Shown piece after piece: positions 1-53,700 of a DNA stretch of 64,000 nt (position 1 is its first letter; every line of letters begins with the position of its first letter). Below the pieces are notes generated by a model. It searched no databases, was not told where the DNA came from, and saw only the letters and a program-made list of their open reading frames with translations. The stretch is from Candidatus Uhrbacteria bacterium (GTDB lineage Bacteria > Patescibacteriota > Patescibacteriia > JACQRZ01), in NCBI GenBank assembly GCA_016188385.1, contig JACPHV010000002.1:101682-165681 (forward strand). The letters are read 5' to 3'. The position numbers were made by a program, and so were the translations under genes.

Positions 1-1254
1 CATCGCATCAAATCGGTATCAGCGTATGAAATTCTGGATTCTCGAGGCAATCCGACTGTTCGTGCGCGCGTGGAATTGGATAATGGCGTGAGTGGAGTGG
101 CATCCGTGCCTTCGGGGGCATCAACCGGAATCCATGAGGCGCTTGAATTGCGCGACAATGATCCGAAACGTTTTAACGGCAAAGGTGTAGTAAAAGCCGT
201 CCGTAATGTAAATCGTAAAATCGCACCCTTGTTGCGCGGATATGATGTTCGCGATCAGCGATCAATTGATAGCGCAATGATCGGTCTGGATGGCACTGAA
301 AACAAATCACGTCTGGGAGCAAACTCAATCCTGGGCGTATCACTCGCATGCGCGCACGCGGCTGCATCATCGACTAAAAAACCGCTTTACCGATATTTGC
401 GCTCTCACACAAAGCTCGGAACAAAAACGCCTTATCGGCTGCCTTATCCGACAATGAATATTCTCAATGGCGGCAAACATGCCGACAGTGGGCTCTCCAT
501 CCAAGAGTTCATGATTATACCTCAAAGGCCGTCCCTTCGTGAACGCGTGCGTATCGGCGCTGAAGTATTCAGCGCATTAAAAAGATTGCTAGTAAAAAAG
601 AACTTTTCAACGCTCGTTGGAGACGAGGGCGGATTTGCTCCCCGCATTGGAACAAATGAACGCGCGCTGAAATTGATCATGAACGCAATCACGACGGCCG
701 GATATCTGCCCGGTAAAGATGTCCTCCTTGGGTTGGATCTAGCTGCGTCGGAATTCTATGATTCTACCACAGGACTATACTCGCTCGAACACGATAAAAA
801 GCCGATTTCGTCCGATCGTATGATTGAAATCATCGATGATTGGAAAACCCGCTATCCGTTATACATTATAGAAGATCCCCTTGATCAAGATGACTGGGCC
901 GGTTGGGCGCGTATCACAAAAAAGCTACGTCACAAGGTTAAATTGGTGGGAGATGATCTTTTTGTCACCAATATCAAACGGCTCAAGGCTGGAATTGACA
1001 AGGGAGTCGCAAATGCTATCTTGATAAAACTTAATCAGATTGGCAGCGTGTCAGAAACGCTTGATTGTATATCTCTGGCGCAGAAGCATTCTTATACGGT
1101 AATCGTATCGCATCGATCCGGCGAGACAGGCGATACCACCATCGCTGACCTTGCGGTAGCAACCAATTCCGACTATATCAAAACGGGGAGCTTATCGAGA
1201 TCGGAGCGGGTGGAGAAATATAATCGACTTATCGAGATCGAGCAGGAAATTTGA
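1..1254 (+). CDS. eno: Enolase (phosphopyruvate hydratase), 5' end outside the window
   Basis: Frame-1 translation from base 1 reads HRIKSVSAYEILDSRGNPTVRARVELDNGV, the enolase N-terminal region. The C-terminal SGETGDTTIADLAVA and NQIGSVSE enolase signatures are present. The ORF track starts at an internal Met at 70. Confidence 0.9.
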   Translation, partial: HRIKSVSAYEILDSRGNPTVRARVELDNGVSGVASVPSGASTGIHEALELRDNDPKRFNGKGVVKAVRNVNRKIAPLLRGYDVRDQRSIDSAMIGLDGTENKSRLGANSILGVSLACAHAAASSTKKPLYRYLRSHTKLGTKTPYRLPYPTMNILNGGKHADSGLSIQEFMIIPQRPSLRERVRIGAEVFSALKRLLVKKNFSTLVGDEGGFAPRIGTNERALKLIMNAITTAGYLPGKDVLLGLDLAASEFYDSTTGLYSLEHDKKPISSDRMIEIIDDWKTRYPLYIIEDPLDQDDWAGWARITKKLRHKVKLVGDDLFVTNIKRLKAGIDKGVANAILIKLNQIGSVSETLDCISLAQKHSYTVIVSHRSGETGDTTIADLAVATNSDYIKTGSLSRSERVEKYNRLIEIEQEI

Positions 1255-1335
1255 GACTGATGAAATATAGCTTCCCGGGACAGGAGCTGAAAGACTGGTA
1301 ACCTCAGATATTTTGCTACAGACTCAATTAAGATT

Positions 1336-12543: not shown

Positions 12544-12948
12544 ATGATTGCAGATCATTTGCTAGCTCATATCGGACAGTATATCTTATTAAAAAACAAA
12601 AGCGGACTACTATTATTGCGTAAGCTCCGCTCTGCCATTGCCTGGGGATTGCCCGGCGGCCGTATCGAAGAAGGGGAGAGCTGGGAGCAGGCTCTAGAAC
12701 GAGAAATAAAAGAAGAAACGGGCCTTACGATTACTGAACCGAAGCCGATCGCGGTGCATCTTATGCGTGAAGGCTCCATGATGAAATATTGCGTATATTT
12801 TAAGGCAGATGTTGTTGATGAAGCGCGGATGCTATTTGACAAAAAAACACATTCCTTGAAATGGGTTTCTTGCCAAGCGGCAGCCAATCTCGATTATGTT
12901 TCTTCTGATATGAAGGATATCATCCTTGGCTTTTTGAAGGAGACATAG
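12544..12948 (+). CDS. NUDIX hydrolase
   Basis: Nudix box GGRIEEGESWEQALEREIKEETGL (GX5EX7REUXEEXGU). Confidence 0.75.
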   Translation: MIADHLLAHIGQYILLKNKSGLLLLRKLRSAIAWGLPGGRIEEGESWEQALEREIKEETGLTITEPKPIAVHLMREGSMMKYCVYFKADVVDEARMLFDKKTHSLKWVSCQAAANLDYVSSDMKDIILGFLKET

Positions 12949-12958
12949 CACCGCTGTT

Positions 12959-13134
12959 ATTGAGACTGTAGAAAAATATCAGACGTAACTTTCTTCCGGC
13001 TCCTTTCGGCGCCGTTTGAGCCAAAAATGGCTTCTCACTCGTCGAAATACTCCAGTATTCCGACGAGTTGCGGCACTATTTTTGATCTCAAACGTCATCC
13101 AAAATGACCGGGAAGCTATTTTTCTACAGCCTCA
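12959..13134. repeat. TIR-bounded element of about 176 bp (MITE/REP-like), copy 1
   Basis: Left end ATTGAGACTGTAGAAAAATATCAG; right end GCTATTTTTCTACAGCCTCATT (17/20 inverted match). Internal conserved blocks are TTCTTCCGGCTCCTTTC and GAAATACTCCAGTATTCC. Homologous to 15222-15393 in inverted orientation. Confidence 0.6.
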
Positions 13135-13268
13135 TTTTGATATAAAAATCGTTCCATCTTGTCAAAGTAATTTCTAGATGCTCATACAAACACATTGATT
13201 GTGCGACACATGAAGGTCTTCATTATTTCATGGAAAACGAAAGGGGATACGATTAGAATGTATTTGAA

Positions 13269-14255
13269 TCAAGTCGTTTTACCTCCATGATGAAATTTTC
13301 TGTGAATATCACGCAAGCGTTTCGATGTAATATGGGTATAGACTTGAGTCGTCGCTATATTGCGATGTCCGAGAAACTCCTGAACAGTACGGAGATCAAC
13401 GCCCTGCGTGAGAAGATCTGTGGCAAAACTATGCCGTAGCGTATGTGGGGTCGCCAAAAAAGGAAGCCCTGCTTTTTTTGCATATTTTTGGACAATACCC
13501 TCAATTGCCCTCGTTGTAAGGCGTTTTGAGTCAGTTTGAGGGCCCTTGAACCTAATAAAGAGCGGTTCATAATCATCATTACGCGAAGATAGGTATGTTC
13601 TCACCCACATCAAAGCCTGCTGTGAAAAATACACTGTTCGCGTATATCCGCCCTTGCCAATAATACTCACTTCAAAATCCGGCGCATGAAGTACGCCCTC
13701 AAATTGCTTACGGTCGAGAGCCGCGAGTTCCGCAACACGAAGACCTGTGGAGAAGAGCGACTCTAGAATTGCTCTGTCACGAAGCCCTGCACTCGTTTTT
13801 GGATTAGCCATTTGGCAAAGTTTATCAACCTGCGTACCGTCAAGAAATTTAATCAGCCGTTCACGCCGCTCCTTTGGTAGTTTAATTTTTTCAGTCGGAA
13901 GCGATTCTATATCCCTTTCATGAAAAAATGCAAAAAACATCCTAAGCGCGATTAAATAACGGCTTTGCGTCGAGCTTGAGAGCGAGGGAGATAACTTTCT
14001 TGTTTTGTTTGGACGTCGCGCAAGCCATAATCGGTATTTCTGTATATGCTCCGCGGTAATTTCTCTTGGGGTAATCGTTGCAAGATTATTTAATTTCAAC
14101 CATGTAATAAATGATTTCAAGAATCTACCGTAATTCTTTATGGTATTTAATGATAATCCTTTTTCAACCTCGCTATATTCAAGAAAGTCAATATAATATG
14201 CGGGTGTTGGTTTTTGCATATATTCTACATATGAGAAAGACCCTATCGCTCTCAA
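13269..14255 (-). CDS. Tyrosine site-specific recombinase (XerC/XerD / phage-integrase family)
   Basis: C-terminal catalytic region HTLRHSFATDLLTQGVDLRTVQEFLGHRNIATTQVYTH (R..H..R..Y). The N-terminal SAM-like core-binding domain reads LSLNTIKNYGRFLKSF. The true start may be the internal Met (MQKPTPAYY) at about 14219. Confidence 0.8.
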   Translation of the reverse strand: MRAIGSFSYVEYMQKPTPAYYIDFLEYSEVEKGLSLNTIKNYGRFLKSFITWLKLNNLATITPREITAEHIQKYRLWLARRPNKTRKLSPSLSSSTQSRYLIALRMFFAFFHERDIESLPTEKIKLPKERRERLIKFLDGTQVDKLCQMANPKTSAGLRDRAILESLFSTGLRVAELAALDRKQFEGVLHAPDFEVSIIGKGGYTRTVYFSQQALMWVRTYLSSRNDDYEPLFIRFKGPQTDSKRLTTRAIEGIVQKYAKKAGLPFLATPHTLRHSFATDLLTQGVDLRTVQEFLGHRNIATTQVYTHITSKRLRDIHRKFHHGGKTT

Positions 14256-14472
14256 GATGCTCGAGTCCTGGTTTGCCTGCCCAGGCGTTCATAGCTAACA
14301 CAAATTCAATTTACCTACATTATACGAAGTATAATACACCATAAAACAACCCCTTCATAGCTCCTTTCTGTGGATAACCGATATCAGATTGCAAAAGAAT
14401 TCCGCCGAACCTATCATTTTTCACCCGCGCGAAGGCGGGTATCCAATAAAATGACATAATCACCAGCCTGAG

Positions 14473-14504
14473 ATAAAAACAAGGGGTGTCATAGACAGCC
14501 CCTT
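14473..14504 (-). terminator. Putative rho-independent terminator
   Basis: On the minus strand this reads AAGGGGCTGTCTATGACACCCCTT followed by GTTTTTAT. It lies 31 nt after the stop of the minus-strand ORF 14535-14981. Confidence 0.4.
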
Positions 14505-14534
14505 ATCACGATAAAATGAAACACGATATGTCCT

Positions 14535-14981
14535 CTATTTGCCGCCTTCGCCCTCCCAGGACTCGAGCATCTTTAGATCGTCCGGGTCCAAGGGACCCGT
14601 GTCCTTGACCGGCTTGTGTTGGTTATACCCTTGCCCTGTGTTGAATCCGTTGGCGTTCTCCTCATTCCTCGCCTCCATGGCGCCCCCTTTCTGGCAGCTC
14701 TTGCGCTGCCGATCGTTGATCCATGCGTCCAGTATCTGTCGCAGCGCAATCGCTGCTGTGAGATACAGCAAAGCCGATGCTGTTAAACCGCTTACTGCCG
14801 CAATAATTGTCCATGTGGCCGAATCAATTGTCGATATCCTGTTTGCTAAGCTTTGCAGTGACTCGCTCGGGTCCCTGCGCGGTATGAATAGGACTGCCGG
14901 TACGACTGTTAGGATCATGGCTGAAATCCAGTATTCTCCGCGAGACATCGAGTATCCTCCTCCACGACCGAATACGGGCAA
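14535..14981 (-). CDS. Hypothetical small membrane protein
   Basis: Two predicted TM helices (ISAMILTVVPAVLFIP and WTIIAAVSGLTASALLYLTAAIAL). A terminator hairpin lies downstream. Preferred over the overlapping plus-strand ORF 14539-15042. Confidence 0.4.
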   Translation of the reverse strand: MPVFGRGGGYSMSRGEYWISAMILTVVPAVLFIPRRDPSESLQSLANRISTIDSATWTIIAAVSGLTASALLYLTAAIALRQILDAWINDRQRKSCQKGGAMEARNEENANGFNTGQGYNQHKPVKDTGPLDPDDLKMLESWEGEGGK

Positions 14982-15221
14982 ACTTGGTTGCGCGATATCG
15001 TTTCCATTGCTTCTTCAACGAACAATGCCTCCTGAAAAGTAAGTATGCAGTGGAAACAACCCACATGTCAACGGATCACTATCCCCCATCATGTATATTG
15101 AATTTATGCGTCGCACAATTTTTGATGTTGCTTTCTCTATAACATTCAATGTATAAACCGCCTTATACATTGAATGTTGCAAATCTTTCTTGAATATCGC
15201 CTACCCGGCAAAGCAGCTTAA

Positions 15222-15393
15222 GAGACTTCTGAAAAAGAGCTTCCAGGTCCTTTGCGATTCAATTTCGTTCCAAAAAGGATGATGAACGCGAAGGAATACT
15301 GGAGTATTCCGACAAGTTCAGCGCCTTTCTTGGAAGGAAATTGGGCGGAAAGGAGCCGGAAGAATTACATAATGAACTTTTGCAGAGGTCTCT
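15222..15393. repeat. TIR-bounded element of about 172 bp (MITE/REP-like), copy 2, inverted relative to copy 1
   Basis: Ends are CTTAAGAGACTTCTGAAAAAG and CTTTTGCAGAGGTCTCTTAAGG (20/22 inverted). The internal blocks GGAATACTGGAGTATTCC and GGAAAGGAGCCGGAAGAAT match copy 1 in reverse complement. It contains the TAA stop of the M23 peptidase gene. Confidence 0.55.
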
Positions 15394-16616
15394 TAAGGAA
15401 GATATTTCAGAGGGTCAACGGGAATACCATTAAGGCGTACTTCAAAATGCAAATGCGGGCCAGTTGTGAGCTTGCCAGCTCCTGCCGTACCTGGCATACC
15501 GCCTGAAAAACCAATAATATCGCCCTTTTTAATATAGGTGTCCTCCGGAACGATAATCCTGCTTACATGCCCATAGACCGTTGCGAGGCCTTGGTCATGG
15601 ACTATCATGATATAGCTATAGCCCATACCGTTGTCTTTCGCGCGCGCGACATAACCGCTTGCCGCGGCCTTCAGTGGTGTTCCTTGATATGCCCTGATAT
15701 CAATTGCGGAATGTTCAAAGATATGTCGGAACGGATAATCGGGATCTCGGAAGTAGGTAGTGATGCCGCGTGAAGGGTCAACCGGCCAAGAAAGTGAAAC
15801 GGGCTTATTGTCAAACAAATCCAATCGCTGGCGTATTGATTTTTCCAACTCTGAAATCTCGCTATCAGCTGCGACTTGTTCGGCTCGAGCTTCTATCAAA
15901 AGCTGCTCATATTTTTCCTTCGAAAGGACTGACTGCAACACGAGTACCTCTTTTGCTTTTTTTTGCTCTTTAAGCAGATCTCCTGAAACTTCAAGCGATT
16001 GTCGCAATTCTTGCAGCCTTACCTTGCTCTGTTCAAGCGTATTTCTCTGTGCAAGCAATTGATCTTTCAAGACTTTAAGCCGCTCAAGCGATTGGAATAC
16101 TTCTCCGTTTACGGTCTCAAGATATTGGATGGTGTCAAAAAAATCAGAAAAGCGTTCATTCGTTAAAAATAGCTCGAGATAATCGCGGCGTTCTTGCTTA
16201 TGGATCTGTCGTACAAAGGCAGCGAGATGCTCTTTATACAACGCGATATCCGTCTCTTTATCTTGAATTTGAACCGTTGCTTGTTCCACCTCGAGTCCAA
16301 GCTGCGCTATCTCCTCTGCTGCTGCTTCGATAGATAACTCCGTCTTTCTGACGCCATCTTCAATGTTAGCGATATCTGATTGCAAGGATGCGGCCTCCTG
16401 AAGTCGCGCGCGAATAGCTCGTTCATAGGTATCAATTTGCGAACGCAAGGATGAGACTCTGCTGCGCTTGTCGCGAATCTGTTCGTTTAATTCCAGTATG
16501 GAAATGTCATGAGATGTCCCCTGCGCACCGACATCGTCGCTCACGATGGCAATTCCGAACAATGTCATGACAAAAGCACATGCGCTCAATACGATGATCC
16601 GTTCTAATACCTTCAT
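15393..16616 (-). CDS. Peptidase M23 family murein endopeptidase with N-terminal coiled-coil (EnvC-like)
   Basis: Signal/TM at the N-terminus, then a long coiled-coil. The C-terminal LytM/M23 domain has HxH (GPHLHFEVRLNGIPVDP). Confidence 0.8.
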   Translation of the reverse strand: MKVLERIIVLSACAFVMTLFGIAIVSDDVGAQGTSHDISILELNEQIRDKRSRVSSLRSQIDTYERAIRARLQEAASLQSDIANIEDGVRKTELSIEAAAEEIAQLGLEVEQATVQIQDKETDIALYKEHLAAFVRQIHKQERRDYLELFLTNERFSDFFDTIQYLETVNGEVFQSLERLKVLKDQLLAQRNTLEQSKVRLQELRQSLEVSGDLLKEQKKAKEVLVLQSVLSKEKYEQLLIEARAEQVAADSEISELEKSIRQRLDLFDNKPVSLSWPVDPSRGITTYFRDPDYPFRHIFEHSAIDIRAYQGTPLKAAASGYVARAKDNGMGYSYIMIVHDQGLATVYGHVSRIIVPEDTYIKKGDIIGFSGGMPGTAGAGKLTTGPHLHFEVRLNGIPVDPLKYLP

Positions 16617-16638: not shown

Positions 16639-16689
16639 ATTGAGACTGTAGTAAAATATCAGCGGGAAGCTATTTTTCACCAGTCTCAA
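16639..16689. repeat. Solo hairpin derivative of the TIR element (copy 3)
   Basis: TTGAGACTGTAGTAAAATATCAG-CGGGAAGCTATTTTTCACCAGTCTCAA. A perfect 9-bp closing stem (TTGAGACTG/CAGTCTCAA). The gltX stop codon (cta at 16670-16672) and its last about 6 codons lie inside it. Confidence 0.55.
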
Positions 16690-18184
16690 ATTGCAATTTT
16701 TTTTCGGCATCCTTGATGCGTTCCACTGATCGTTTCTTGCCCAGCACTGAAGCGACCTCAAACGGACTCGGGCTTGCCGCCAAACCCGTTAACGCAACCC
16801 GCAACGGCCATAATACAACACCGTTTTTCATGCCCGCACTTTGAATCTCTTTTTTCAGCTGATCTTCAAGATTCTCCGGGCTATATTCATCCGCCGAAAT
16901 TTTTTGAAGTGATGAATATGCGATAAGGAGTCCTTGCTTGATTTCCTCGACTGGGGTTTTTTTCCATATAAGCAACGCGGCGTCATATTCCAGTTCTTGC
17001 GTGAATACATAGGAAAGACGATGAGGTATCTCGCGTAAACGGTGGATACGTTCTTGCTCAAGTCGGACGATCGATTCAAGCTCTGTTTGAGATAACCGTC
17101 GTCCATCTGTCGAAACCGAATAACTCTCCCCTTCTCTTACGATATACCCTTCCTCAATCAAATACGGGATACACCATGAAGTTAATTCGGGAAGACTCAT
17201 CCCGCGAATATACATGGCGTTGAACCACTCTAATTTCTGTAAATCAAAAATGGCGCCCGACTTATTCACGCGTTCCAAAGAAAACTCCTTTTCGAGCTCC
17301 TCCAATGTAAATAGCTCGCGATCGTTGCCGGGATTCCATCCAAGAAGCGCCATAAAATTAACCAGCGCTTGCGGAAGGTATCCTTCGGTGCGATATTCAA
17401 GCAGCGATACCTTATTTTGACGCTTGCTTAATTTTGTCCTGTCAGGATTCAAGATCAATGGCAGATGAGCAAACTCCGGTACGGTAAATCCGAATGCCTC
17501 ATCGAGAAGAATTTGTTTCGGTATATTGGATATGTGTTCCTCTCCCCTGATAATATGGCTTATCTTCATCTGATAATCATCGATTACTACGGCGAAATTA
17601 TAAAGCGGCGCGTCAAAATCCTTCGCAATGATAAAATCATCAAGCGTATTGGTATCAAAGGTGAGTTCCCCACGAATATGATCAACGACGCTTAACACTC
17701 TGTTGCGCGGTATGCGAAAACGAAGCGTAGAAGATTTTCCGCTTGACTTCATTGCGGCACGTTGTGATGCGGATAGGTCTGCGCATGTGCCACTATAGCG
17801 AGGCGGCTGCTTCGAGAGTACTTGCATTTCACGCTCCTGTTCTAACTCCTCTTTGCTGCAATAGCATGGGTACACAAGATCTTTATCCGCCAATTGGCGC
17901 AGAAAGGGAGTGTAGGAGCTCATTCTTTCACTTTGGCGATAGGGCGCGCACTCCCCGCCTGTTCCCGGACCCTCATCCCACTGTATGCCAAGCCATTTCA
18001 AGCCTTCAAGTATATCATCCTCAAATTCCTTTTTTGAACGCTCAATGTCAGTATCTTCGATGCGGACGATAAAAACACCATTATTTTTTTTTGCGAACAA
18101 ATAATTAAAAAGCGCCGTACGCGCGGTACCGATATGAAAATACCCTGTCGGTGATGGTGCGATTCGTGTTCGTATCATGCCCAA
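16670..18184 (-). CDS. gltX: Glutamyl-tRNA synthetase
   Basis: HIGH motif (PSPTGYFHIGTART) and KMSKS-type KLSKR. 504 aa. Confidence 0.9.
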   Translation of the reverse strand: MGMIRTRIAPSPTGYFHIGTARTALFNYLFAKKNNGVFIVRIEDTDIERSKKEFEDDILEGLKWLGIQWDEGPGTGGECAPYRQSERMSSYTPFLRQLADKDLVYPCYCSKEELEQEREMQVLSKQPPRYSGTCADLSASQRAAMKSSGKSSTLRFRIPRNRVLSVVDHIRGELTFDTNTLDDFIIAKDFDAPLYNFAVVIDDYQMKISHIIRGEEHISNIPKQILLDEAFGFTVPEFAHLPLILNPDRTKLSKRQNKVSLLEYRTEGYLPQALVNFMALLGWNPGNDRELFTLEELEKEFSLERVNKSGAIFDLQKLEWFNAMYIRGMSLPELTSWCIPYLIEEGYIVREGESYSVSTDGRRLSQTELESIVRLEQERIHRLREIPHRLSYVFTQELEYDAALLIWKKTPVEEIKQGLLIAYSSLQKISADEYSPENLEDQLKKEIQSAGMKNGVVLWPLRVALTGLAASPSPFEVASVLGKKRSVERIKDAEKKLQFETGEK

Positions 18185-18242
18185 AGAATGCAGACTTACT
18201 TAAAGACGGTAGCAAAATACAGGAAGCTACGGTTCAACAGTC

Positions 18243-19028
18243 TCAACTTTTTGTTATGATAATCTTTGTTCCTATCGGTGTCCAGTCATAAAGCAATTTC
18301 GCTTTATCTGTCCCGAGGCGAATACATCCGCCTGATACCGGCGTTCCGAGATGATCTTCGCCTTCTTTCCTGCCTCCCGGCCATTCCGGAAGCTCATGGA
18401 TCCCGTATTTACCCGCGCGAATACCATTCCCCCCTAGTCCCATCCAGTACGGCATCCATAGCTGCGCCGGTCCTGACCATGCCCTGCCGGATTTATTCAC
18501 AATCTGAAACTCCCCCACCGGGGTCGGCATACCCGGCTTACCCGTTGATACGCGAGCCGAGTCTAACATCATATCTCCTAAATAATAGCGAAGCCGTTGA
18601 TCGTCAAGCGCTACCTCTATTCTCTTTTTCAATTTGATTTTTGATTTGCTTCGAGGATCGTAGCTTGCCTCTATCTCCGTACGGTCGTCAAACCCATCGC
18701 CATCCGTATCATTTTTTGCGGGGTTTGTTCCGATTGAAATCTCATACGCGTCAGTAAGGCCGTCTTGATCAGAGTCGGCTTCTGTCAGCTTGATCGCTTC
18801 CGGCGTAAGAGGTGAATACCCATTGAGCGCCTCAATCCAATCACTGTATCCATCGCCATCCGTGTCTGCGTTAAACGGATCAGTCCCGTAACGCAATTCA
18901 TCATGATCTTGTAATCCGTCGCCGTCGCTATCAATATTCTTTTTTGTATCTGCCTGCGTCTCGGTTGGCGCACAGACATAATAGAGTAACGCTAAAGCCA
19001 ATACAAAACGAGCGGCTATGAGCGCCAT
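18243..19028 (-). CDS. L,D-transpeptidase (YkuD domain) fused to TSP3 calcium-binding repeats
   Basis: N-terminal signal peptide, then five D-x-D-x-D-G-x-x-D repeats (DSDGDGLQDHDE, DTDGDGYSDW, DSDQDGLTDAYE, DTDGDGFDDRTE). The C-terminal YkuD catalytic motif is HGT....GGCIRL. The start is trimmed to the Met that avoids overlap with the upstream gene; the track start is 19088. Confidence 0.75.
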   Translation of the reverse strand: MALIAARFVLALALLYYVCAPTETQADTKKNIDSDGDGLQDHDELRYGTDPFNADTDGDGYSDWIEALNGYSPLTPEAIKLTEADSDQDGLTDAYEISIGTNPAKNDTDGDGFDDRTEIEASYDPRSKSKIKLKKRIEVALDDQRLRYYLGDMMLDSARVSTGKPGMPTPVGEFQIVNKSGRAWSGPAQLWMPYWMGLGGNGIRAGKYGIHELPEWPGGRKEGEDHLGTPVSGGCIRLGTDKAKLLYDWTPIGTKIIITKS

Positions 19029-20241: not shown

Positions 20242-20636
20242 ATAGTGCGGGGCGGAGGTCAAGGACGTGCCGGTTGAGCTATGGACGGAACATGCGCTAG
20301 GCGCCGGATCATGGAGTGTGCCAAATAGCGATATAGGATGAATCCATCCTTGATTACTAGTATATTGCTATTGAAAAAAAACATCAAGGGATTTACTGAA
20401 CTATCCGCACATATGGTAACGAAAAGCCTATGCTTTTGGCCGCCTTCAAAGCCCTTCAGCGAAAAAAATCCTCATCGTATCTACGGATACGTTTGCGGTT
20501 TTTTTCGCCTCCAGGACTTTGATTCCGGCTCAAAATCATACATTTTTCTTGTTAACCCATGTATGGATAGTCAGTAAATGCTGGGGATATAGTGTGGACA
20601 GTTATTGACCTTGTCTTCCTGTGAGAATGGGATACA

Positions 20637-31258: not shown

Positions 31259-31464
31259 TGCGTCTTATTATGGTTGCTATAATTCATGTATTACGTATAA
31301 TACGCCTATTGATTATTGTGGGAGTCTTCCGCAATGTATCACTCGAGGCGGAGCATTGTGGCGGCACATGTATACAGTTCATTGCGGACGCTTAGCCTCT
31401 CTACGCGTAGCTTTCGAGTTGGAGCGTGTCGATAGTACGCACGCTTCGCCCTCGGAGATTTTTT

Positions 31465-31535
31465 CGGGCTGGAGTATGCCGGTAGTACGCACGCTTCGGG
31501 TGCGTGTAGACTGGGTTCAATTCCCAGCAGCCCGA
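31465..31535 (+). tRNA. tRNA-Pro (anticodon CGG)
   Basis: CGGGCTGGAGTATGCCGGTAGTACGCACGCTTCGGGTGCGTGTAGACTGGGTTCAATTCCCAGCAGCCCGA. The 7-bp acceptor is CGGGCTG/CAGCCCG, the D-stem GTAT/GTAC, and the anticodon stem CACGC/GCGTG with loop TTCGGGT (U33, G37). The T-arm is CTGGG-TTCAATT-CCCAG. G8 replaces the usual U8. Confidence 0.65.
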
Positions 31536-31716
31536 AAAAATCCCCGAGACAATTACATACGGACGAAGTCCGTGTAGACTGGGTTCAATTCCCAGCAGCC
31601 CGATGGGCGGCGAGTATTGATGAAAAAATATCCGTAGAACTGCCGAAGGCAATGTTTAGGCGGACAGGGAAACTATGTTTCTGCAGTCTCAACCTATACT
31701 ATACAAGTGATGCCAC

Positions 31717-37241: not shown

Positions 37242-37437
37242 CATTACGTAAGAGACCCATTTATTGACATTCACCAATTGCGTTAACAAGAAAAAATGTT
37301 TGATTTTGAGGCAGATCTGCAGCTCTGGAGGCGTAAAAAACCGCAGACGTACTATTAGTACGATGAGGATTTTTTGCGGCGAAGAGCAAGGAGCTGGTCA
37401 AAATCATAGGCTTTTTCGTTAAGGTAATTGGCGAATG

Positions 37438-38265
37438 TCAATAGGAAAGCTTGCTGATTTGTCCAAAAAATTCAACTATCTTTTTATTCTCCGGATTGGC
37501 GGCGCGTAACCTATCAAGTGCCTGCTCCGCGTATAAACGCCGTCCGAGCGCAATATAGGTAGCTGTCAACGAATCTAAAAATCGCGGATTGTTCGCCTCC
37601 ATCTCAACCGCTTTCAAGATCCACGAAAGGGCTTCTTCTGACCGTCCTTGGAGTATACAAACTTCCCATAAATCATACAAGACCTCCGTCTGGATGGACT
37701 CCGGACTGCTTGGAAAGTTCGAATCAGCTGCGTCGATTCGCCGCGCAAGACGCAGTACATGCTTGAGCGTAGCCTCCGCTTCTTTGAATTCCTTTTGTTC
37801 AAGATACACTCGTGAAAGCCCCATATACGGATCAACGCGCCGAGGGTCAAGTTTGATCGCTTCGATAAAATCTTGTTCAGCGTCGTAATAACTTTCTTTT
37901 TCGATAGATTCAAAACCTCGAGAAATGAGATCGTCTGGAATAACTGTTTTCTTGCCGGCAGCGCCGGAATCTTCACTACTCGGATATGATTCCTTTACAG
38001 CTCGCAATTTTGCGTAGGAACGGTGAAAAAATCGATATAGTATAGCAAATAAAGGAATGGCAAACCTTGATAGAATCTCACGCCACTCATGCATACTACG
38101 CAGTAACCGTTCTCGCAATATGCGTTTGCGTACAGATGCCTCACGCTCTTGGGGCAGCGCATCGATATTAATAGATGCGACAATCCGCAGTCTCCTACCA
38201 ACGAGATAGGCGATGGCGGCGATACATATGATGATGATGAAAATCGAAATAACGTTCAATATCAT
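37438..38265 (-). CDS. TPR-repeat protein with N-terminal TM anchor
   Basis: N-terminal helix ILNVISIFIIIICIAAIAYLV. At least three TPR units (AEQDFIEAIKLDPRRVDPYMGLSRVYLEQKEFKEAEATLKHVLRL...). Confidence 0.6.
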   Translation of the reverse strand: MILNVISIFIIIICIAAIAYLVGRRLRIVASINIDALPQEREASVRKRILRERLLRSMHEWREILSRFAIPLFAILYRFFHRSYAKLRAVKESYPSSEDSGAAGKKTVIPDDLISRGFESIEKESYYDAEQDFIEAIKLDPRRVDPYMGLSRVYLEQKEFKEAEATLKHVLRLARRIDAADSNFPSSPESIQTEVLYDLWEVCILQGRSEEALSWILKAVEMEANNPRFLDSLTATYIALGRRLYAEQALDRLRAANPENKKIVEFFGQISKLSY

Positions 38266-45179: not shown

Positions 45180-47744
45180 TTATTTGCTGTAATCTGAATT
45201 TGTATCCGTGCCTGTAAAAGGGTCATCTGCTCCTGACTGCAAAGTACACTGCCGTCGAAGTTTTGATTGAGATAACAAAGGATATTCGTATACTCCGCAG
45301 AGTTCGTACTTATCCAATGAAGTATTTGAAGCAGGCGTATGGAGATACGTATAGGCGGAAAGTTTTTTTGACGCCAACACATTTTTTACATTATCCCCTC
45401 GATCCACGATCGGAGGAGTCGTCGTGCTTTGCGACGGATCAAGCGGCATGGAAGCGCGCAATGCTTTGCCAAGCTCTTGCGCCCACGAAGGCCAGCCGGA
45501 AATGGTCTGTCCCAATGTATAACTCCCCGCGGAAAGAGCCGGATAACAGGTTGGATTACATTTGCCGCGCACTCGATATTGTTCAAGTTGATCATGGATA
45601 AAGCTGATATGCGCTGATCGCTGCGTATCACGGCGCAACGCCGCGCTCGCGTCAGCATCATCTTGCGGTGTTGCCAGACGAATGGTACGCATCAACTCCG
45701 TAAAGACCGCGCGCGACGGTCCGGCAGGATTCGCGCTGGTGGTAAAATTCAAAATCCGATAGGAAGTAATTGATGAGTTAGTATCCAGGACAGGCACGCT
45801 TATATAGTATCCTGTCCCGTCTTGGACCGCTGGGAATCCATTCACTATGGTATTCGAAGGGCGTTGGTTAGGATTGAGCTCATTACGCGCATACCATACG
45901 TCAGGAGAGAACTTGTTCGGATTGCGATAAGCGCGCATAACAATTAAATCAGTTGAGTTGGTAAACCGATAAAAATACTCTTCGAGCGGAGTGGAGCTTC
46001 CTGCCGAGAATCGATCCTTGACTTCGGTCGGATCACTCATTAATGCGGGCAGTGTTAATCCCTTCTTTGCGACACAGTAGGAAAGCCGATATTGATATTT
46101 ACCGGACGGATCGGCTGCCGTACCCGGCGTCTCCCAGAATTGATAACAATCTTTAATAGTGCATTGGTCCGCGTGCCCTGACGCATAACATTGATCGGCT
46201 GTCCACGCCGAAGATGTGGGATCGCATTGCTCCCCGCTATCTACCTGTCCATTGCCGCATGTTTCATCCGGTGTTACGACAGGCGTTGAACCCGTTGGTT
46301 TGATTACATCATTCACGAGAATAATCTGTGCCTGCTGGACAGTGCCGGCAAGAGGCAAAACAAATACGGTAAGTATCGCGCTACCGGGTTGATTTGTATT
46401 TTCTACGATCAAATCTGTTTCCTTGCCTGCGGAACCGATTTTTTGCACTTCACGAAAAGCCGGGCTCTCGCTCAACTCCCATCGGACTTGTCTGATCTTA
46501 TCCGTCCCAATCAAAGAATTGTTTTGCGCGTGCACGCGGAGCGAATACCGATGCTGGTTGCCCGTACGGCTTCCTGATCCCTTGTCGCTATCGTCTTCAC
46601 AGTCATCTGCGGTGCAGGAAAATCTGTCGATATCTATCGGTCGACCGTTGCTGTCTATGATTACGTGTTCAAAGATATTAGGGCTGCCTTGTTTGTCCGG
46701 TCTGCCGACGCATTGTACCGGGTTTGAGCCGGTTATGGTACATGATTGGTATGGGTGTTTATTTCCAATCGAGAGCGAAGCGGATCCCGCTACGCCATCT
46801 ACCCACGCGGTAACGGTTCCTGTGCCCGTGGACGTTGCCGTATCGCCAAGCAGCGTTCGGATGTGAATTCGTTTTGCTCCTGATTCGTCTGACAGTCGGT
46901 ATCTATCCGGCTTGTCGACCTTCCAGCGCACAAGAGAATCCGAAATCGCAACAACATTCCCTTGCAAATCCTTTACTTCCAACTCAAGCGCGTGTTGATT
47001 GTTTTGATCATTACCCGAAGTAAAGGAATCGTCGCGGCACGCATTGCCGATACAGCCAAACATGTCACGAGGCAAGAATTGGCCGTTTGACCGTATCCGC
47101 ATCGAACGAACCTGGAGTATTGACAAGAGATTTTCTACTTTTATCTCCGCGCTGAACGTCTCGGATCCTTCGCCATCAAGATTAGCGGTTGTAACGATTG
47201 CTTTAAGTGTTACGGGCTGCGTGGTATTTACTCCGCTATTTGTCAAATACACTTCCGTAGAACTTGCGCCGAGATTTGTCGAATTATCAGAAGCGCGAGT
47301 GATGATAATCGGTGAATTTGCGGGCGAAAGACTCCACTCAATCTTCTCAATAGGGTGCACTCCCGCGATATCATCCAGAGAAATAAAGCTGTTATCCTTA
47401 TCATGCAGCCGGAGTGAATATATTCTTTGGTTGCCGATAAAACGCGAGCTTTGGTCATTGGCGCAAGTATTGCCAAAACAGCTGAACCTGTCCGTAGTCA
47501 CCGGCTTTCCATTCGCGTCGATCGCCGCTCTTCGCGTTGAGTCCGTAGATACAGCCGCATGCGGCCCTCCTGTACAAGACGAACGGCCGCCGGTCAAGCA
47601 GGTGGCTCGCGGATGCTTGTTGGATACGGTCATTTCTAGCGTTGTCGTACCAGTCGCGTTAGCAACCGAAAGTTTTAGCAGTCCTTCTCCTTCGGAATCG
47701 GCATTCGTAAGCTCAACGCTACGGCCGATCCCGGACAAACGCAT
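45180..47744 (-). CDS. C-terminal module block of the giant repeat protein (separate ORF owing to a frame break at about 47.72-47.78 kb; possible pseudogene fragment or assembly artefact)
   Basis: 854 aa. It has three copies of the FxC.GN.C.DD...GNQH module of about 110 aa and one CGNGQVDSGEQCDP Cys-rich unit. It is colinear with, and about 45% identical to, the region of the upstream giant ORF that follows the duplicated 175-bp patch. The residues just upstream of its Met in the same frame (ISWELTASADA) continue the homology. Confidence 0.55.
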   Translation of the reverse strand: MRLSGIGRSVELTNADSEGEGLLKLSVANATGTTTLEMTVSNKHPRATCLTGGRSSCTGGPHAAVSTDSTRRAAIDANGKPVTTDRFSCFGNTCANDQSSRFIGNQRIYSLRLHDKDNSFISLDDIAGVHPIEKIEWSLSPANSPIIITRASDNSTNLGASSTEVYLTNSGVNTTQPVTLKAIVTTANLDGEGSETFSAEIKVENLLSILQVRSMRIRSNGQFLPRDMFGCIGNACRDDSFTSGNDQNNQHALELEVKDLQGNVVAISDSLVRWKVDKPDRYRLSDESGAKRIHIRTLLGDTATSTGTGTVTAWVDGVAGSASLSIGNKHPYQSCTITGSNPVQCVGRPDKQGSPNIFEHVIIDSNGRPIDIDRFSCTADDCEDDSDKGSGSRTGNQHRYSLRVHAQNNSLIGTDKIRQVRWELSESPAFREVQKIGSAGKETDLIVENTNQPGSAILTVFVLPLAGTVQQAQIILVNDVIKPTGSTPVVTPDETCGNGQVDSGEQCDPTSSAWTADQCYASGHADQCTIKDCYQFWETPGTAADPSGKYQYRLSYCVAKKGLTLPALMSDPTEVKDRFSAGSSTPLEEYFYRFTNSTDLIVMRAYRNPNKFSPDVWYARNELNPNQRPSNTIVNGFPAVQDGTGYYISVPVLDTNSSITSYRILNFTTSANPAGPSRAVFTELMRTIRLATPQDDADASAALRRDTQRSAHISFIHDQLEQYRVRGKCNPTCYPALSAGSYTLGQTISGWPSWAQELGKALRASMPLDPSQSTTTPPIVDRGDNVKNVLASKKLSAYTYLHTPASNTSLDKYELCGVYEYPLLSQSKLRRQCTLQSGADDPFTGTDTNSDYSK

Positions 47745-50700
47745 GGCATCCGCACTCGCCGTAAGTTCCCAGGAAATCAGCTACGATGCGGTGCTGGTTG
47801 CCGGGCATGGCTGAACTCGCGTCATCAGCGCAGGAGTTACCGATACAGCCGAACGCGTCAGAAGGAAGATAGTCGCCGTTGGTGGAGAGTCGGATGGCGG
47901 AAATAGCGCGCGTTACCGGTGTGGGCTCTACCACATCTTGTTCCCCATCATTGTCATCATCGTCATCTTCCTCTCGTATTCTGTCGGCAAGCTCGGTATC
48001 GTTCACGAGCACGATTTCTGTCGTGCGCACCGGCCCTTGGACAGGAAGCACAGTCACCGTTAAAGTCGCGCTGCCGGGTTTATCAGTATTTTCAATCACT
48101 ACTCTTTCTCCCTTCGTGCCCATAACTCGAAGAGGCCGCGGACCAAACGCATTCGATGCGCTCAATGTCCACTCGATCCGCCTGATCTGATCAAGCGGTA
48201 ATAAACGATTGTTCTGCGCGTGCATGCGCGCGTCATACGTATGCTGGTTTGCGGCGCGTGCTTGTTCACGATCATCTTCACAGGAGTCGCCTCTGCATGA
48301 AAAGACATCGCGCGAAATGGGTCTGCCGTTTGAGTCGATTGTAATGGTGTCGAGTATATTCACATTTCCCTGTTTGTCCGGATGTCCAACACATTGCCTG
48401 TCAGTGCCCGTCCCGGTACATCTCTGATAGGGATGTTTGTTGTCCAGCGCGATAGACGCGATGGCGGAAATACCATCGACACGAGCAGTGATAATACCGG
48501 AGCCCGTGCTTGTCGCCGCATCATTGATCAATGCCGAAACGTTCACTCTGCTGGTGCCCTGTTCGCTGGATAGATCAAAGAGGTCTTTACGGTCAAGCGA
48601 CCAATGCACTTTTGCCTGATCAATCGAAAGAACGCGCCTACCATCGGTGACTACGAGCTCAAGCGCATGCTGATTGCCGGCTGATCCGGCGGCTCGGTCA
48701 TCTTCGCAGCTATTCCCGGTGCAGCCGAAAGCGTCTTGATTCAAAAACTGGCCGTTGGATTTGATTAGGATGTCTCTGACAAGAAATGTTTGCACCTGAT
48801 TAATGACCTGAATGGAAGCTGTAATCGGATTCCCTTTACCGGTCACGGGCGTGACAGTCGCTGAAAGGGTCGCGGATCCGTCAACTTCGGTATTGGTGAG
48901 AATAATATCGAAGTCTTTAGTCCCTTCCGGGTTGTTCCGTGACGGGTCAAGATCGCGAAATGCCTTTCGGGAAGATGAGGCGTGAATGAGAGACCATTCA
49001 ATCTTTGCTATGTTTGTCGGATCGGCAAAGCTGCGGTTTTTGTTGTGCAGGCGCAATGAATACACGCGCTGATTGCCGGAAGTACCGGCAACGCGGTCAT
49101 TGAGGCAGTTATTTCCAAAGCAGGTGAATACATCAGTCCCGAGCGGCCGATCATTCGCTTCGATTGCGGCTTCGGCGATTTCATCTGCTCTGCCAGCCTG
49201 ATCGGGCCCGCCGATGCAACCGGCACGATTCGCGGTGAGACATTCCCGACGAGGAAATTTGTTTACGATCGGAATCGCTTTTGTCACTGACGAGCCGGAA
49301 ACGGAGACTGTCAGCGTAGCGCTTCCCTGATCAGCCGTATTTGTGGCAAAAATTGTCTTGCCGGAATCGCGGGACAAGACGACTGTGCTTGTTGCGCCTG
49401 AAAGCGCCCAGGAAATCCGCTCATCGGGTACCGAAAGAGCTTTGCCATTCGCGTCGAAGAAATCAGCTACGATGCGGTGCTGGTTGCCGGGCATGGCTGA
49501 ACTCGCGTCATCAGCGCACGAATTACCGATACAGCCGAACGCGTCAGAAGGAAGATAGTCGCCGTTGGTGGAGAGTCGGATGGCGGAAATAGCGCGCGTT
49601 ACCGGTGTGGGCTCTACCACATCTTGTTCCTCATCATTGATATTCTCGAGTTGTATTGTCACTCGTACATTCTGCTGTACCGTTTCATTTTTCGATCCGG
49701 TCGCTTTAACCGTTACAGTCGAGGTGCCATTTTGATTTTTCGGAGTCACCTGTATTGTGGGGGTGGACAAGGAACTTAAATCAACCAGAGCGGTACTCGT
49801 AGCCGTGGGTCCGGACGCAAACCATTCGATCTTGACAGGAGAGACTTCGCTTCCTTCCGCCGAATACGCCTTGATACGATAGGTATGCTGATTACCGCTT
49901 CTGACGGTATCTTGATCACCGGAACATCCTGTAAGAGCAGCGCAAGTAAACAAATCGGTTGTGGAAGCGTTCAGGGCGGTATTGATGAATATCTCAACAG
50001 TTGCGATTTCGGCAATCTCCGCGACAGGCGTGACTGGACCAGCGGATTTTTGGATCCATACTGATTTCTTGCACTGTTCGCCAAACCAAGAATTGCCTTC
50101 TTTCATTTGTAAAATCAGATTGACACGGCCTTGCGCAAGGGGCGTATAGGGACGGACGCCGAATGTGACGCGTTCCCCGGGTGCGATGGATCGTGATAAC
50201 GGCACAACGTCAAGTTCGGGCACTCTCACGGTGCCTGACGAACGCAGAGCAAAGATATGTGTCGCGGGATTCCATGTCTTGGTGCCCGCATTCTTAAGCG
50301 AAAATTCCAACAGGAAATCTTTATGTTCGTCAGTGATAAGCGGCAGATTTTGAGCTCGGCACGCATTCGTGCACGCATTCGTGTCATCAGTATCTCCGTC
50401 GTCACATTCCTCCGATCCTTCTTTAATCCCATTTCCGCACACTCCTTTGTTCAGACGACAATCGGTGCGGCAACGATCCGTATTGGATCGATTACCATCG
50501 TCGCACTGTTCCCCAGTCTCCAGTTTACCGTTGCCGCAGTACGGCAATGCCGTGTCACGCAGCGTGCAATCGTTGCGACAAAGATTGGCGTCAATGCGGT
50601 CGCCGTCGTCGCACTGTTCCGTTCCTTCCTTGATGCCGTTGCCGCAATAACCGGTATTGAGCTTGCACGCACTCGTACACGCGTCTGTGTTATCGAGATT

Positions 50701-53700
50701 GCCGTCGTCGCATTCTTCGCCGATTTGCGGATCTACGTTTCCATTGCCGCACCATGAACCGCCGAGATTCGTATTGCACGCGTTTGTGCAAGCGTTGATG
50801 GTAACGCGATCGCCGTCGTCGCACTGCTCCCCTGCTTCAATTACGCCGTTGCCGCAGGTGCCGGCATTCGCGCGGCAAGAATTGGAACACGCATCGTCGT
50901 TGTTCGTATTACCATCGTCGCATTGTTCTGTGCGATCGCGGACTCCATTACCGCACGTACTCGTCGGACGCGTACATGTATTTGTACACCCATCGTTAGT
51001 AACGCGGTTGCCGTCGTCGCATTGTTCACCGGCATCAAGGATACCGTTGCCGCAATACCCTGCATCAAGGACGCAGTCCGAGCGACATCGCCCGTTATTG
51101 GGCGTATCGGAACCGTCGCACTCTTCACCAGCCTCTTGTTTACCGTTGCCGCAGTACGGCAGTGCCGTGTCACGCAGCGTGCAATCGTTGCGACAAAGAT
51201 TGGCGTCAATGCGGTCGCCGTCGTCGCATTGTTCATCACCTTCCCGCAAACCGTCGCCGCAGAAAGGCTGCGATGTCCGAATCGTACAGAGCGCGTCATT
51301 GGTAAACTGTGGCGCCAAATTGACGGATGCCATGCACATCTCGCCGATTGGCGTATCACCCTCCATCAATTGCCAATGCAATGGTTTGACCCCTGTCACG
51401 ACAGGCGCGATCAGTGATGTCGTAATTTCAAGAAACTCCCCCGGGGCGATTTTAGGTTTGGAAACAGGAATCGCGATCACGCTTTTTGACCAGAAAGTAT
51501 TATCTAAAGGTGACTGGGATCGGATACGATACGAGGGCGTGCCTGTCGCGTTCCATGTGTTCGTGCCTGTATTTTCCAATCGTATCCGCGCGGTAAATGA
51601 ATGGCCTGAATCAAACTCGCCAGGCGCTATCCGGATAGTCTGGGGAGCATTGATCGTACAGCGCGCATTATGCGCGCTCACTACTCGAAGAGTGCAGTTG
51701 TTTCTGCAAAGATCGGCATCAATGCGGTCGCCGTCGTCGCACTGCTCTCCGGTCTCCTGAATCCCATTGCCGCAAAAACCCGTGTTCGGCTTGCAGTCAT
51801 TGGCGCAAGCATTCGTATTGATCCGATCGCCGTCGTCGCACTGCTCTGTTCCTTCTTTGGCGCCGTTGCCGCAGACAGGCGTTTTTGAACTTCCTGAACA
51901 ATCATTTTTGCATGCGTTGCTGTTATCTGTATCTCCGTCATCGCATTGTTCAGCGGCCTCTACCTTCCCATTACCGCAGTATGGCAGTGCCGCGTCACGC
52001 AGCGTGCAATTGTTTTTGCACAGATTACCATCAATACGGTCGCCGTCGTCGCATTGTTCCGTTCCTTCTTTGGCGCCGTTGCCGCAGAATCCCGCGTTGC
52101 CGGTACAATCATTCTTACAGGCGTTGCTGTTATCAGGATCGCCGTCGTCGCATTGTTCCGTTCCTTCTTTGGCGCCGTTGCCGCAATAACCAGCGTTGCC
52201 GGTACAATCGTTGCGGCACGCATCCGTGTTCACAGCATTGCCGTCATCGCACTGTTCGCTCCCTTCAACGACGGAATTGCCGCACCGCGGACCTGTACGA
52301 TTCAGCGTGCAATCATTTAAGCATTCGTTGGTGTTGAGACGATCTCCGTCATCGCATTGTTCATTCCCTTCTTTCAAGCCGTTGCCGCAGAAACCGGATC
52401 GAGGCGTACAGCTATTCCGACAAGCGTTTGCATCGTTCGTATCCCCGTCATCGCACTGCTCCGTACCATCTTTAATGCCATTGCCGCAGAATCCCGGGTT
52501 GCCGGTACAGTCATTGCGGCAGGCATCGGTATGTGTTGAATTGCCGTCGTCGCACTGCTCCGGATCTTCTCGGACTCCATCGCGGCATACCGGCCCGCCG
52601 GGGGTATTCAACCGACAGTCATTGCGGCAGGCATTCGTATCAATAGTATCGCCGTCATCGCATTGTTCCCCGTCATTTTTAATGCCATTGCCGCAACCGG
52701 TAGGATTTGATGCGCAATCGTTGCGGCACGCGTCAGTATTGATTTGATTTTTGTCATCGCACTGCTCCGTGCCTTGTTTGATGCCGTCACCGCACTGCGG
52801 CGAAGGACCGCCCTTGATCGTACAATCGTTGCGGCACGCGTCAGTGTCATCTTTGTTGCCGTCATCGCATTGTTCCCCGGCATTGATAATCTTATTTCCG
52901 CACCCTTCCGGATTCGCTTTGCAAGAATTCGAGCATGCGTTTGCGTCGTTTGTGTCACCGTCGTCGCACTCCTCCCCCGCTTCCAATGTGCCGTTGCGAC
53001 AAAAACCCGCGTTGCCGGTACAATCGTTGCGGCACGCGTCAGTACTAATAGTGTTGCCGTCATCGCACTGCTCATAGAGGTCGCGAATTCCGTCGGTACA
53101 GATTGGACGATTTGTATTTATCGAACAATTATTATGGCAGGTATCATCATTGACCGCGTTGCCGTCATCGCACTGCTCCGTTCCTTCTTTTTTACCATTG
53201 CCGCATTGGTTCGCGTTTGAGCTGCATACATTACTGCAGCCGTTCTTGTCATCCTTATCACCGTCGTCGCATTGCTCGGCTCCTTCTTTCATTCCATTGC
53301 CGCAGAATCCTGGCTTGCCGGTACAGTCATTGCGGCAGGCATTTTCATTGTCTTTATCACCGTCGTCGCATTGCTCTCCGTAATCAACTTTGCCATTACC
53401 GCAAGTTGGCGGATTTGGATTTACGCTTTGACATTCGGGCCGAGTGGAGCAATCAGAACATGTGCAGGATTCATTTGCTTCGCATCTTCCGTTTGAATTA
53501 CATGACCCGCCGTTGCGCGGCGATATGACACGAATGTTCTTGACGCAACGCTCCCCGAACCAAGTATCTTTGTTACGCATTTGCCAAGCAAATGCGTAGG
53601 TACCTGCCGCGGCGGGCGCGGTTACTTGAGTTGAAACGCTGGAAGAGGTCTTAGCGTTTATTGAGGATGGCAATACAACAGATGTTCTTCCCCAAAGGGA

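Follow-up and report, generated by a model that had tools for sequence, protein, structure and literature searches.

The DNA considered here is a 64,000-nucleotide stretch (the window) of a Candidatus Uhrbacteria genome (contig JACPHV010000002.1, positions 101,682 to 165,681), in which a gene for a tyrosine recombinase and one small gene lie between two inverted copies, A and B, of a hairpin-forming repeat of about 175 nucleotides (nt). The recombinase gene, called xer below, occupies 13269..14219 on the minus strand and encodes 316 amino acids (aa) from an ATG at 14219; an upstream TTG at 14255 would extend the product to 328 aa, the ATG being the more likely start. Its companion, at 14535..14948 on the minus strand (the frame alternatively runs 14535-14981), encodes a hypothetical protein, 137 aa long and with a pair of hydrophobic segments, that matches MBI2483677.1 exactly, and is preceded on the same strand by a predicted promoter-like site (TTGACA-18-CATACT, 15042..15071). 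These are the sole plausible genes between A and B, as an initial annotation of the sequence had also found. That annotation proposed that the ensemble was a small composite mobile unit, a recombinase with its cognate sites or an integron/attC-like arrangement, and offered as a fallback that a chromosomal Xer gene merely happens to be flanked by elements resembling repetitive extragenic palindromes (REPs).

The two elements, homologous, mutually inverted and 2.1 kb apart, lie essentially where they had been placed. Copy A (12961..13134, plus strand) is full length, has type-1 termini (TGAGACTGTAGAAAAATA...TATTTTTCTACAGCCTCA) and sits between the convergent 3′ ends of a NUDIX gene and xer; copy B (15217..15397, minus strand), likewise full length, has type-2 termini (AGAGACCTCTGCAAAAG...CTTTTTCAGAAGTCTCT) and starts at the TAA stop codon of an M23 peptidase gene. 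Terminal inverted repeats (TIRs) of some 20 bp had been described as bounding each copy, and they measure 18 nt in A (94% complementarity) and 21 nt in B (90%); the elements as a whole are 173-181 nt long. Beyond being TIR-bounded, each element forms an imperfect palindrome along almost its entire length, with a computed RNA fold of -66 kcal/mol (z = -8.4) for A and -72 kcal/mol (z = -8.1) for B, a stability reached by 0 of 200 shuffles in either case. A(+) aligns best with B(-), blastn giving 67.8% identity over 174 nt, and the internal blocks that had been singled out as shared are indeed so: TTCTTCCGGCTCCTTTC is exact in both copies and occurs nowhere else in the 64 kb, GAATACTCCAGTATTC is limited to A and B, and GGAAGCTNTTTTTC is found in both. 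The apex of each shows an arm-spacer-arm layout (CTCGTCGAAAT-ACTCCAGT-ATTCCGACGAG) with its central 16 nt identical in A and B, and the only open reading frame (ORF) internal to the elements is a 53-codon frame inside the hairpin. A and B are nonetheless no matched pair, because their mutual identity is only 67.8%, because B is nearer (87%) to a copy in another genome, on contig L009, and because the two carry different terminus subtypes.

The product of xer combines an N-terminal SAM-like domain (SAM_1, PF02899) with a Phage_integrase domain (PF00589, 1.8e-37) and has the R-K-H-R-H/W-Y set of catalytic residues, features by which it counts as an Xer protein in the broad sense; the motifs GLRV(A/S)EL, IGKG, H-LRH-FAT, LGH and YTH align with those of Escherichia coli XerD (1a0p), the nearest solved structure. 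The choice among XerC, XerD, integron IntI and phage integrase subfamilies, which the initial annotation had left to a profile search, could be settled in part. The NCBIfam models for XerC (TIGR02224, 229 bits against a cut-off of 335.15) and XerD (TIGR02225, 227.5 against 329.6) score equally well, both short of the equivalog cut-offs, followed by XerA (194 bits) and XerS (124 bits), with invertase models far lower; XerH is matched at E = 8.5e-11. The integron integrase model (TIGR02249) reaches 99.6 bits against a cut-off of 265, over residues 245-313 only. On these sequence comparisons the recombinase is Xer-type, with no assignment to XerC or XerD. The protein is an exact match to P0001/MBI2483676.1 from a Ca. 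Uhrbacteria metagenome-assembled genome (MAG) and shows 60-85% identity across Parcubacteria; there are about 8000 homologues, the best 120 of them 62-100% identical, a level of conservation that matches a core gene, and xer is therefore taken to be one. The small protein has no match in Pfam or NCBIfam, and its only homologues are L055_91 and L002_85, not the 159-aa or 72-104-aa proteins that fill the same slot elsewhere; this slot, between the M23 gene and a 28-bp site just upstream of xer to which we return below, holds non-homologous small genes in different subclades.

Comparison with relatives dissociates the gene from the repeats. The comparison took in ten relative loci for which flanking context is available, with xer identities of 73-76% (L002, L003, L053, L054, L055, L056) or 62-66% (L057, L058, L059), and of 85% in L052, which is too short for upstream gene order. 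In nine of the ten, L002, L003, L053, L054, L055, L056, L057 and L059 among them, the genes run (YkuD or murG)-gltX-M23-small gene-xer, and convergent genes come next. The element was found by blastn and nhmmer in none of the ten xer loci, three of which (L003, L053, L054) have no room for it there, and no NUDIX/GT-M23 junction devoid of xer was seen among them. The same recombinase slot thus exists in relatives without the element, an outcome that the initial annotation had itself named as one that would reduce the flanking to coincidence. A second Xer gene, for which it had advised looking, is absent from the 64-kb window, as is any transposase gene. Some variation surrounds the conserved order. 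In the distant Parcubacteria locus L058 (4427-7603), xer, together with the site that precedes it, is inverted with respect to ftsW-murG-gltX-M23, and xer still stands at the convergence point. Extra genes follow xer in L002 (6770-8073) and L052 (1017-1740), including one for a conserved 177-180-aa protein without counterpart in the window, and L002 has a second tyrosine recombinase split into ORFs of 50 and 200 aa; tblastn detected no remnant in the window of that L002-type recombinase or of the 180-aa gene, a 12-nt motif described below apart.

Copy A is dispensable. A 2071-nt Logan contig from read set SRR12113422 (L001), 99.9% identical over 2039 nt to window positions 15174-13136, jumps from 13136 straight to 12961-12932. 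It lacks about 172 nt of A yet keeps the recombinase beside the NUDIX gene. It ends exactly 30 nt beyond the junction and, on the other side, inside a perfect palindrome at 15141-15178; an end at that distance fits a branch in the assembly graph, if a k-mer size of 31 is assumed, and both alleles likely coexist in the population. L001 was considered and rejected as a clean empty site, since four of the 12 nt beside the right junction differ. It is the one case of presence/absence polymorphism in the material.

The repeat is moreover dispersed, within the window and far beyond it. The terminal motif GGGAAGCTATTTTTCNNCAGNCTCA has four matches in the window against 0.00 expected, and there are six copies or derivatives in all, counting A and B, which are the only full-length ones. 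The other four comprise a 74-nt derivative with the hairpin apex deleted (1252..1325, minus strand), between eno and gpmI, whose terminal TGA is the enolase stop codon; a 49-nt minimal derivative with the two termini joined (16640..16688, plus), between gltX and the M23 gene, which the gltX frame enters for seven codons and in which it ends; a degenerate short derivative (18204..18249, plus) between a YkuD-domain gene and gltX, whose terminal TGA is the stop of the YkuD gene; and a degenerate derivative (31617..31693, plus) that adjoins a tRNA gene and has a well-preserved right terminus. In the short forms the hairpin base is retained and the apex missing, for which reason they are read as deletion derivatives. 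Overlaps with stop codons occur at 1250-1254, 15393-15397, 16670-16690 and 18243-18249, and in relatives gltX has different C-terminal tails, with little or no intergenic space where the 49-nt copy sits.

Outside the window, one genome per species was covered by a pattern scan and metagenome contigs by a gapped scan. Full-length copies are present in the Ca. Uhrbacteria MAG JACQSA01 (four copies on three contigs: L009, L041 and, with two, L017), in the Patescibacteria MAG JBBTTG01 (L013 and L025), upstream of tuf in CAYJLM01 (nhmmer), an assembly labelled Gammaproteobacteria whose copy-bearing contig holds a tuf/ribosomal-protein operon, and in four further metagenome contigs, so that the full-length total is thirteen, across at least four assemblies and four metagenome contigs. 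The two JBBTTG01 copies (L013 1654-1862, L025 2424-2632) bear the same 36-nt GC-rich hairpin at their apex, which is either a nested insertion or the mark of a subfamily that later spread. The neighbours of the copies outside the window are diverse (HAD/TrmB, PilM, pilin-like, CNNM/TPR, PstS-like/aldehyde dehydrogenase, WecG, FGase and tuf genes), and none of the eleven other full-length copies has an Xer homologue beside it (tblastn of the fetched loci; L006 by ORF inspection only). Copies thus lie at other gene ends in the window and at unrelated loci elsewhere, a dispersal that the initial annotation had likewise listed as speaking for a widespread REP-like element. The element has no match in viral contigs, plasmids or phages. 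Rfam 15 returns only tRNAs in the window at the gathering score and nothing relevant at a permissive threshold, where the best match for 12900-15450, to a microRNA-precursor model, has 23.5 of the 230 bits that the gathering score demands, and a search for literature on palindromic repeats or miniature inverted-repeat transposable elements (MITEs) in Patescibacteria/Parcubacteria found nothing relevant. Without an Rfam, plasmid or phage match, the repeat family appears to be undescribed.

What has been preserved in these copies is the hairpin. In an alignment of 12 full-length copies (A2: A and 11 others, A itself having an nhmmer E of 6.7e-42), the two arms are consistently unlike each other, which gives the element a defined orientation. 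Sixteen of the 40 consensus pairs are altered on both sides with pairing kept, against 7.6 in column shuffles (0 of 500 reach 16) and 2-5 in slid registers; since such two-sided changes exceed both controls, the hairpin is under constraint. The two terminus subtypes, type 1 (TGAGACTGTAGAAAAATA...) and type 2 (AGAGACCTCTGCAAAAG..., in B and L017b), are each internally complementary, and the apex loop varies between copies (TCCA, TTCA, GGGC, CTCG, GGAAA). In each of the 12 copies the strand complementary to the aligned one forms the more stable fold, by 9-23 kcal/mol, by virtue of G-U pairs: unpaired cells are mostly A-C or C-A on the aligned strand, that is, G-U on the other (16 against 5). This asymmetry hints at a role as RNA or as a single strand, on which we do not lean, the copies being related and gene orientation mixed. 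The flanks of the copies are AT-rich and often prolong the palindrome (AATT...AATT).

The locus is best explained, and we hold this with good confidence, as a conserved chromosomal xer locus flanked by independent, diverged copies of a dispersed hairpin repeat of the MITE or REPIN kind. It was thus the fallback of the initial annotation that proved right, leaving aside the exact XerC or XerD class that it had mentioned. On this explanation, copies, which would have spread in trans by means of a transposase, lodge in the scarce gaps at the 3′ ends of genes, where at several genes they abut or even supply the stop codon. Their stem pairing is maintained by compensatory substitutions, and copies decay through loss of the apex to forms such as those of 74 and 49 nt. 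Any effect they have after insertion would not go beyond that of a strong hairpin, in ending or stabilising transcripts. On this view A and B are not sites of Xer recombination, nor is the block of xer and small gene a transposable unit. That both lodged here probably reflects how few intergenic neighbourhoods of a compact genome are as roomy and as tolerant of rearrangement as this one.

Several observations pull the other way. In 64 kb there are just two full-length copies, and they sit 2.1 kb apart, inverted, around the only recombinase, a proximity whose chance probability we roughly estimate at a few per cent to about 8%. The genome-wide density of the repeat is extrapolated from these 64 kb. 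The allele in L001 has no clean footprint of excision or insertion, given the mismatches (4 of 12 nt) at its right junction. The flanks of the 12 aligned copies revealed no clean target-site duplication, no single length fitting all of them. No autonomous partner element was found, and the 64-kb window contains no gene for a transposase or for a REP-associated tyrosine transposase (RAYT, a Y1 transposase); the case for mobility therefore rests on dispersal and the one presence/absence polymorphism. Finally, the better-folding strand hints at an RNA or single-strand role of which a plain DNA-transposon model has no need.

This last point leads to an alternative in which the hairpins are primarily selected as structured RNAs, be they strand-specific elements of 3′ untranslated regions (UTRs), terminators or stabilisers, or small RNAs, with mobility secondary, and in which those flanking xer regulate the convergent NUDIX/xer and M23/small-gene transcripts. 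The compensatory changes in 16 of 40 pairs, the superior folding of the same strand in 12 of 12 copies and the excess of broken pairs that are G-U on the other strand (16 cells to 5) would all follow from it, as would the conservation of the sequence across several lineages of the Candidate Phyla Radiation (CPR), and in about eight of the 13 copies the better-folding strand is in sense with the 3′ end of the upstream gene. Yet four or five copies (B, L017b, L049 and L050) are antisense to both neighbours, no Rfam family matches, the hairpins are followed by no T-tract and no terminator-like site is called at them, and presence or absence within one population argues against an essential role; the asymmetry itself could come from a single asymmetric ancestor or from a single-stranded DNA intermediate. 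We consider it unlikely that selection as RNA is the primary explanation.

The surroundings of xer have features of their own. Cumulative GC skew has its peak at 12.8-13.4 kb, genes are on the plus strand up to 12948 and mostly on the minus strand from 13269 onward, and xer is in all relatives the final gene ahead of the convergence. Such a pattern is expected at a replication terminus, and the point of convergence is a candidate for one, which 64 kb cannot prove; xer would accordingly be the last gene of a replichore-like block. Just upstream of it lies the 28-bp site ACTTCGTATAA-TGTAGG-TAAATTGAATT (14303..14330, minus strand), which overlaps the -10 box of xer. It occurs once per locus, unchanged or with up to three mismatches, in the window as well as in 11 of 11 relative xer loci (L001 and L056 included; at 5781 in L002, 5970 in L003, 35 in L052, 5176 in L053, 1750 in L054, where it is a two-mismatch variant, 5966 in L055, 4951 in L057, 4956 in L058 and 4932 in L059) and in none of 48 other loci, with the consensus ACTTCGTATAA-TGTAGG-TAAATCnAnGT and 22 invariant bases. 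To judge from its sequence it is certainly the xer promoter, because the -10 box lies inside it and TTGACA stands 17 nt upstream in most relatives. The 22 invariant bases, together with a dyad symmetry that peaks at a spacer of 6 nt (6.1 of 11; spacers of 9 nt and 5 nt follow with 5.0 and 4.3, the others scoring 1.3-3.5 and mostly about 2.5), suggest that it is also bound by a protein, the right arm mirroring the left only weakly. It is the only such site in the window, lies about 1 kb from the skew peak and is a candidate Xer-binding or dif-like site; the odds that it serves Xer as a dif site or auto-operator are, as far as sequence can tell, roughly even. If Xer has a cognate site here, this 11-6-11 site overlapping its own promoter would be the best candidate. 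Nine of the 11 bases of its left arm match the left arm of Bacillus subtilis dif.

Other resemblances in this region were set aside. A canonical dif consensus (ATAANNNNNNTTATGTNAANT) has 19 matches against 21 expected, which is chance level, one of them in the site upstream of xer. A 15-nt identity over arm and spacer (ACTTCGTATAATGTA) with loxP has no inverted second arm and includes the -10 box, and was judged a coincidence. A perfect DnaA-box 9-mer (TTATCCACA) immediately precedes the xer promoter at 14369-14377 and is also present in the distant relatives L057 (4919-4927) and L058 (4924-4932); it was given no weight, being unconserved in close relatives and variable in orientation relative to xer. 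The 28-bp site has no match in plasmids, phages or viral contigs.

Around xer there are also smaller inverted repeats. The 12-nt motif GTGTCGCACAAT (13198..13209, minus strand), downstream of xer, has an inverted counterpart GCGTCGCACAAT (15108..15119, plus) upstream of the small-gene promoter, and an inverted pair, conserved in position over three lineages, likewise brackets the block of small gene and xer in L002 (5041/7828), L055 (5023/7023) and L056, the right copy of L002 being inside its second, split recombinase gene. The xer promoter also lies, in a geometry like that of an inverton, between the halves of a 33-nt inverted repeat (14239-14271 / 14556-14588), which are complementary at 85% and share a perfect core of 18 nt; the half within the xer 5′ UTR duplicates, in inverted orientation, the last codons of the small gene (DPxxLKMLESW) and lies in a lineage-specific extension of that UTR, of about 80 nt, that relatives lack. 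A partial inverted copy of the 28-bp site occurs at 15086-15110, and the perfect 16-6-16 palindrome at 15141-15178 (AACATTCAATGTATAA GGCGGT TTATACATTGAATGTT, with an ATAA-N6-TTAT core) is absent from relatives. These traces, none of which draws on A or B, may be scars of past inversions around xer. The alternative orientation at the 33-nt repeat was not found, nor was an alternative C-terminus of the small protein that would betray inversion, its 90% cluster having a single member.

Some of these features could be drawn into a broader reading, in which the 175-nt hairpin is a strand-specific RNA or single-stranded DNA and not inert selfish DNA, and in which the Parcubacteria xer locus is a single-recombinase terminus xer-dif module whose site doubles as promoter and whose M23-xer slot is an Xer-dependent hotspot that captures and inverts small genes and hairpins. 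The inverted GTGTCGCACAAT pair, the 33-nt inverted copy, the partial site at 15086-15110 and the inverted xer of L058 are consistent with such a locus. As a joint proposition we regard it as quite improbable.

Far less room is left for the cassette as first envisaged, in which A and B are cognate sites or terminal repeats of a 2.4-kb unit that moves or inverts as a whole, in the manner of a composite transposon, an inverton, a pdif module or an integrative mobile element exploiting Xer (IMEX). Its appeal is plain: inverted homologous elements bracket exactly a recombinase and one small gene, they are the sole full-length copies in the window, their apex has an arm-spacer-arm layout with a common central 16 nt, and xer is inverted relative to the M23 block in the distant relative L058. 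As a composite mobile unit it founders on flanks that are 68% identical, with B nearer to a copy from another genome, and on an xer slot fixed in nine of ten relatives without the element; as a recombinase with cognate sites, on the absence of the element from all ten relative xer loci and its presence elsewhere, in eleven other full-length copies, with no recombinase as neighbour. Furthermore, A is absent in L001 while the cassette stays, the apex loop varies freely, as the loop of a hairpin would and unlike a crossover region, and no duplication flanks the whole unit, all of which makes a mobile cassette very unlikely. That the hairpins are instead single-stranded DNA substrates of Xer, in the style of attP of the CTX phage or attC of integrons, placed by Xer and hence enriched near xer and dif, would fit long folded hairpins with a strand bias and the position of both full-length copies beside xer, the candidate dif-like site and the candidate terminus, but insertion sites are many, unrelated and none like the 28-bp site, the element has no convincing similarity to ACTTCGTATAATGTAGGTAAAT, which is found only upstream of xer, and the locus is free of hairpins in relatives that have the same Xer and site, so that this idea is hardly credible.

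The remainder of the window is occupied by housekeeping genes (eno, gpmI, mreBC, lepA, recJ, dnaB, recR, cysS, ftsAZ, tpiA, hisS, lepB). It includes, at 47719-56475 on the minus strand, an ORF of 2918 codons made of cysteine- and aspartate-rich repeats of about 99 nt, whose neighbours have bacterial TSP3 repeats and which is probably a giant surface protein. At a tRNA gene (31465-31535; region 31412-31603), a tRNA fragment of 36 nt is duplicated at 97% identity, 68 nt apart, with a 37-nt repeat upstream, and these duplications could be the scar of an old integration, or a pseudo-tRNA. Another family of hairpins, unrelated to the first, full-length and of about 185 nt (fold -81 kcal/mol, z = -9.2) is represented at 37261-37443 and 20440-20585 by two mutually inverted copies, each beside a tRNA gene; because an unrelated family occurs in the same window, long-hairpin repeats are a general feature of this host genome.

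Genomes of CPR/Patescibacteria are usually described as streamlined and poor in repeats. The family described here documents long-hairpin repeats in this group, and should be useful for annotation and as a strain marker. Among known systems, its closest counterparts are the non-coding, MITE-like palindromic repeats typified by the Correia elements of Neisseria, ERIC/IRU of enterobacteria and RPE of Rickettsia. These are likewise 50-200 nt long, with TIRs and an imperfect hairpin spanning the whole element, occur in many dispersed copies in intergenic positions at gene ends, come in length variants created by internal deletion or insertion, vary in presence or absence between strains and in some cases overlap reading frames or stop codons. 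Correia elements duplicate TA, whereas in the present family no clear target-site duplication was found; the family also differs in having no known cognate insertion sequence, in residing in a CPR bacterium with a tiny genome, and in a sequence unrelated to described families, as judged by the lack of Rfam, plasmid or phage matches. The likeness to REPINs, which consist of two short (20-40 nt) REP palindromes and, like REP elements, are mobilised by RAYT transposases, lies in long hairpins with conserved ends, the apparent absence of target duplication, an extragenic location after genes and slow decay; here, in contrast, the whole 175 nt form one conserved asymmetric hairpin, and there is no RAYT in the 64-kb window.

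With composite transposons, pdif modules and IMEX the locus shares inverted repeats that bracket a short gene block with a gene of the tyrosine recombinase type. Those systems have matched functional sites in varying contexts, whereas here the repeats are 68%-identical members of a family and the genes are fixed in relatives; a new small mobile recombinase unit, as originally proposed, is not what the locus is. A parallel for xer itself is offered by the single-recombinase systems XerS/difSL of streptococci and XerH/difH of Helicobacter, in which the recombinase gene adjoins dif as one module (PMC5357621). The presence of an 11-6-11 site directly upstream of xer in 11 relative loci and the convergence of skew and gene orientation recall this arrangement, while the protein is nearer to XerC, XerD or XerA than to XerS or XerH, the right arm of the site is weakly symmetric and the site doubles as the -10 region of a promoter. 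The Parcubacteria Xer gene emerges as a fixed landmark at the convergence of skew and orientation. For the resolution of chromosome dimers in these uncultured bacteria the 28-bp site is a concrete candidate, and the proposed xer-dif module a lead that is not yet a result.

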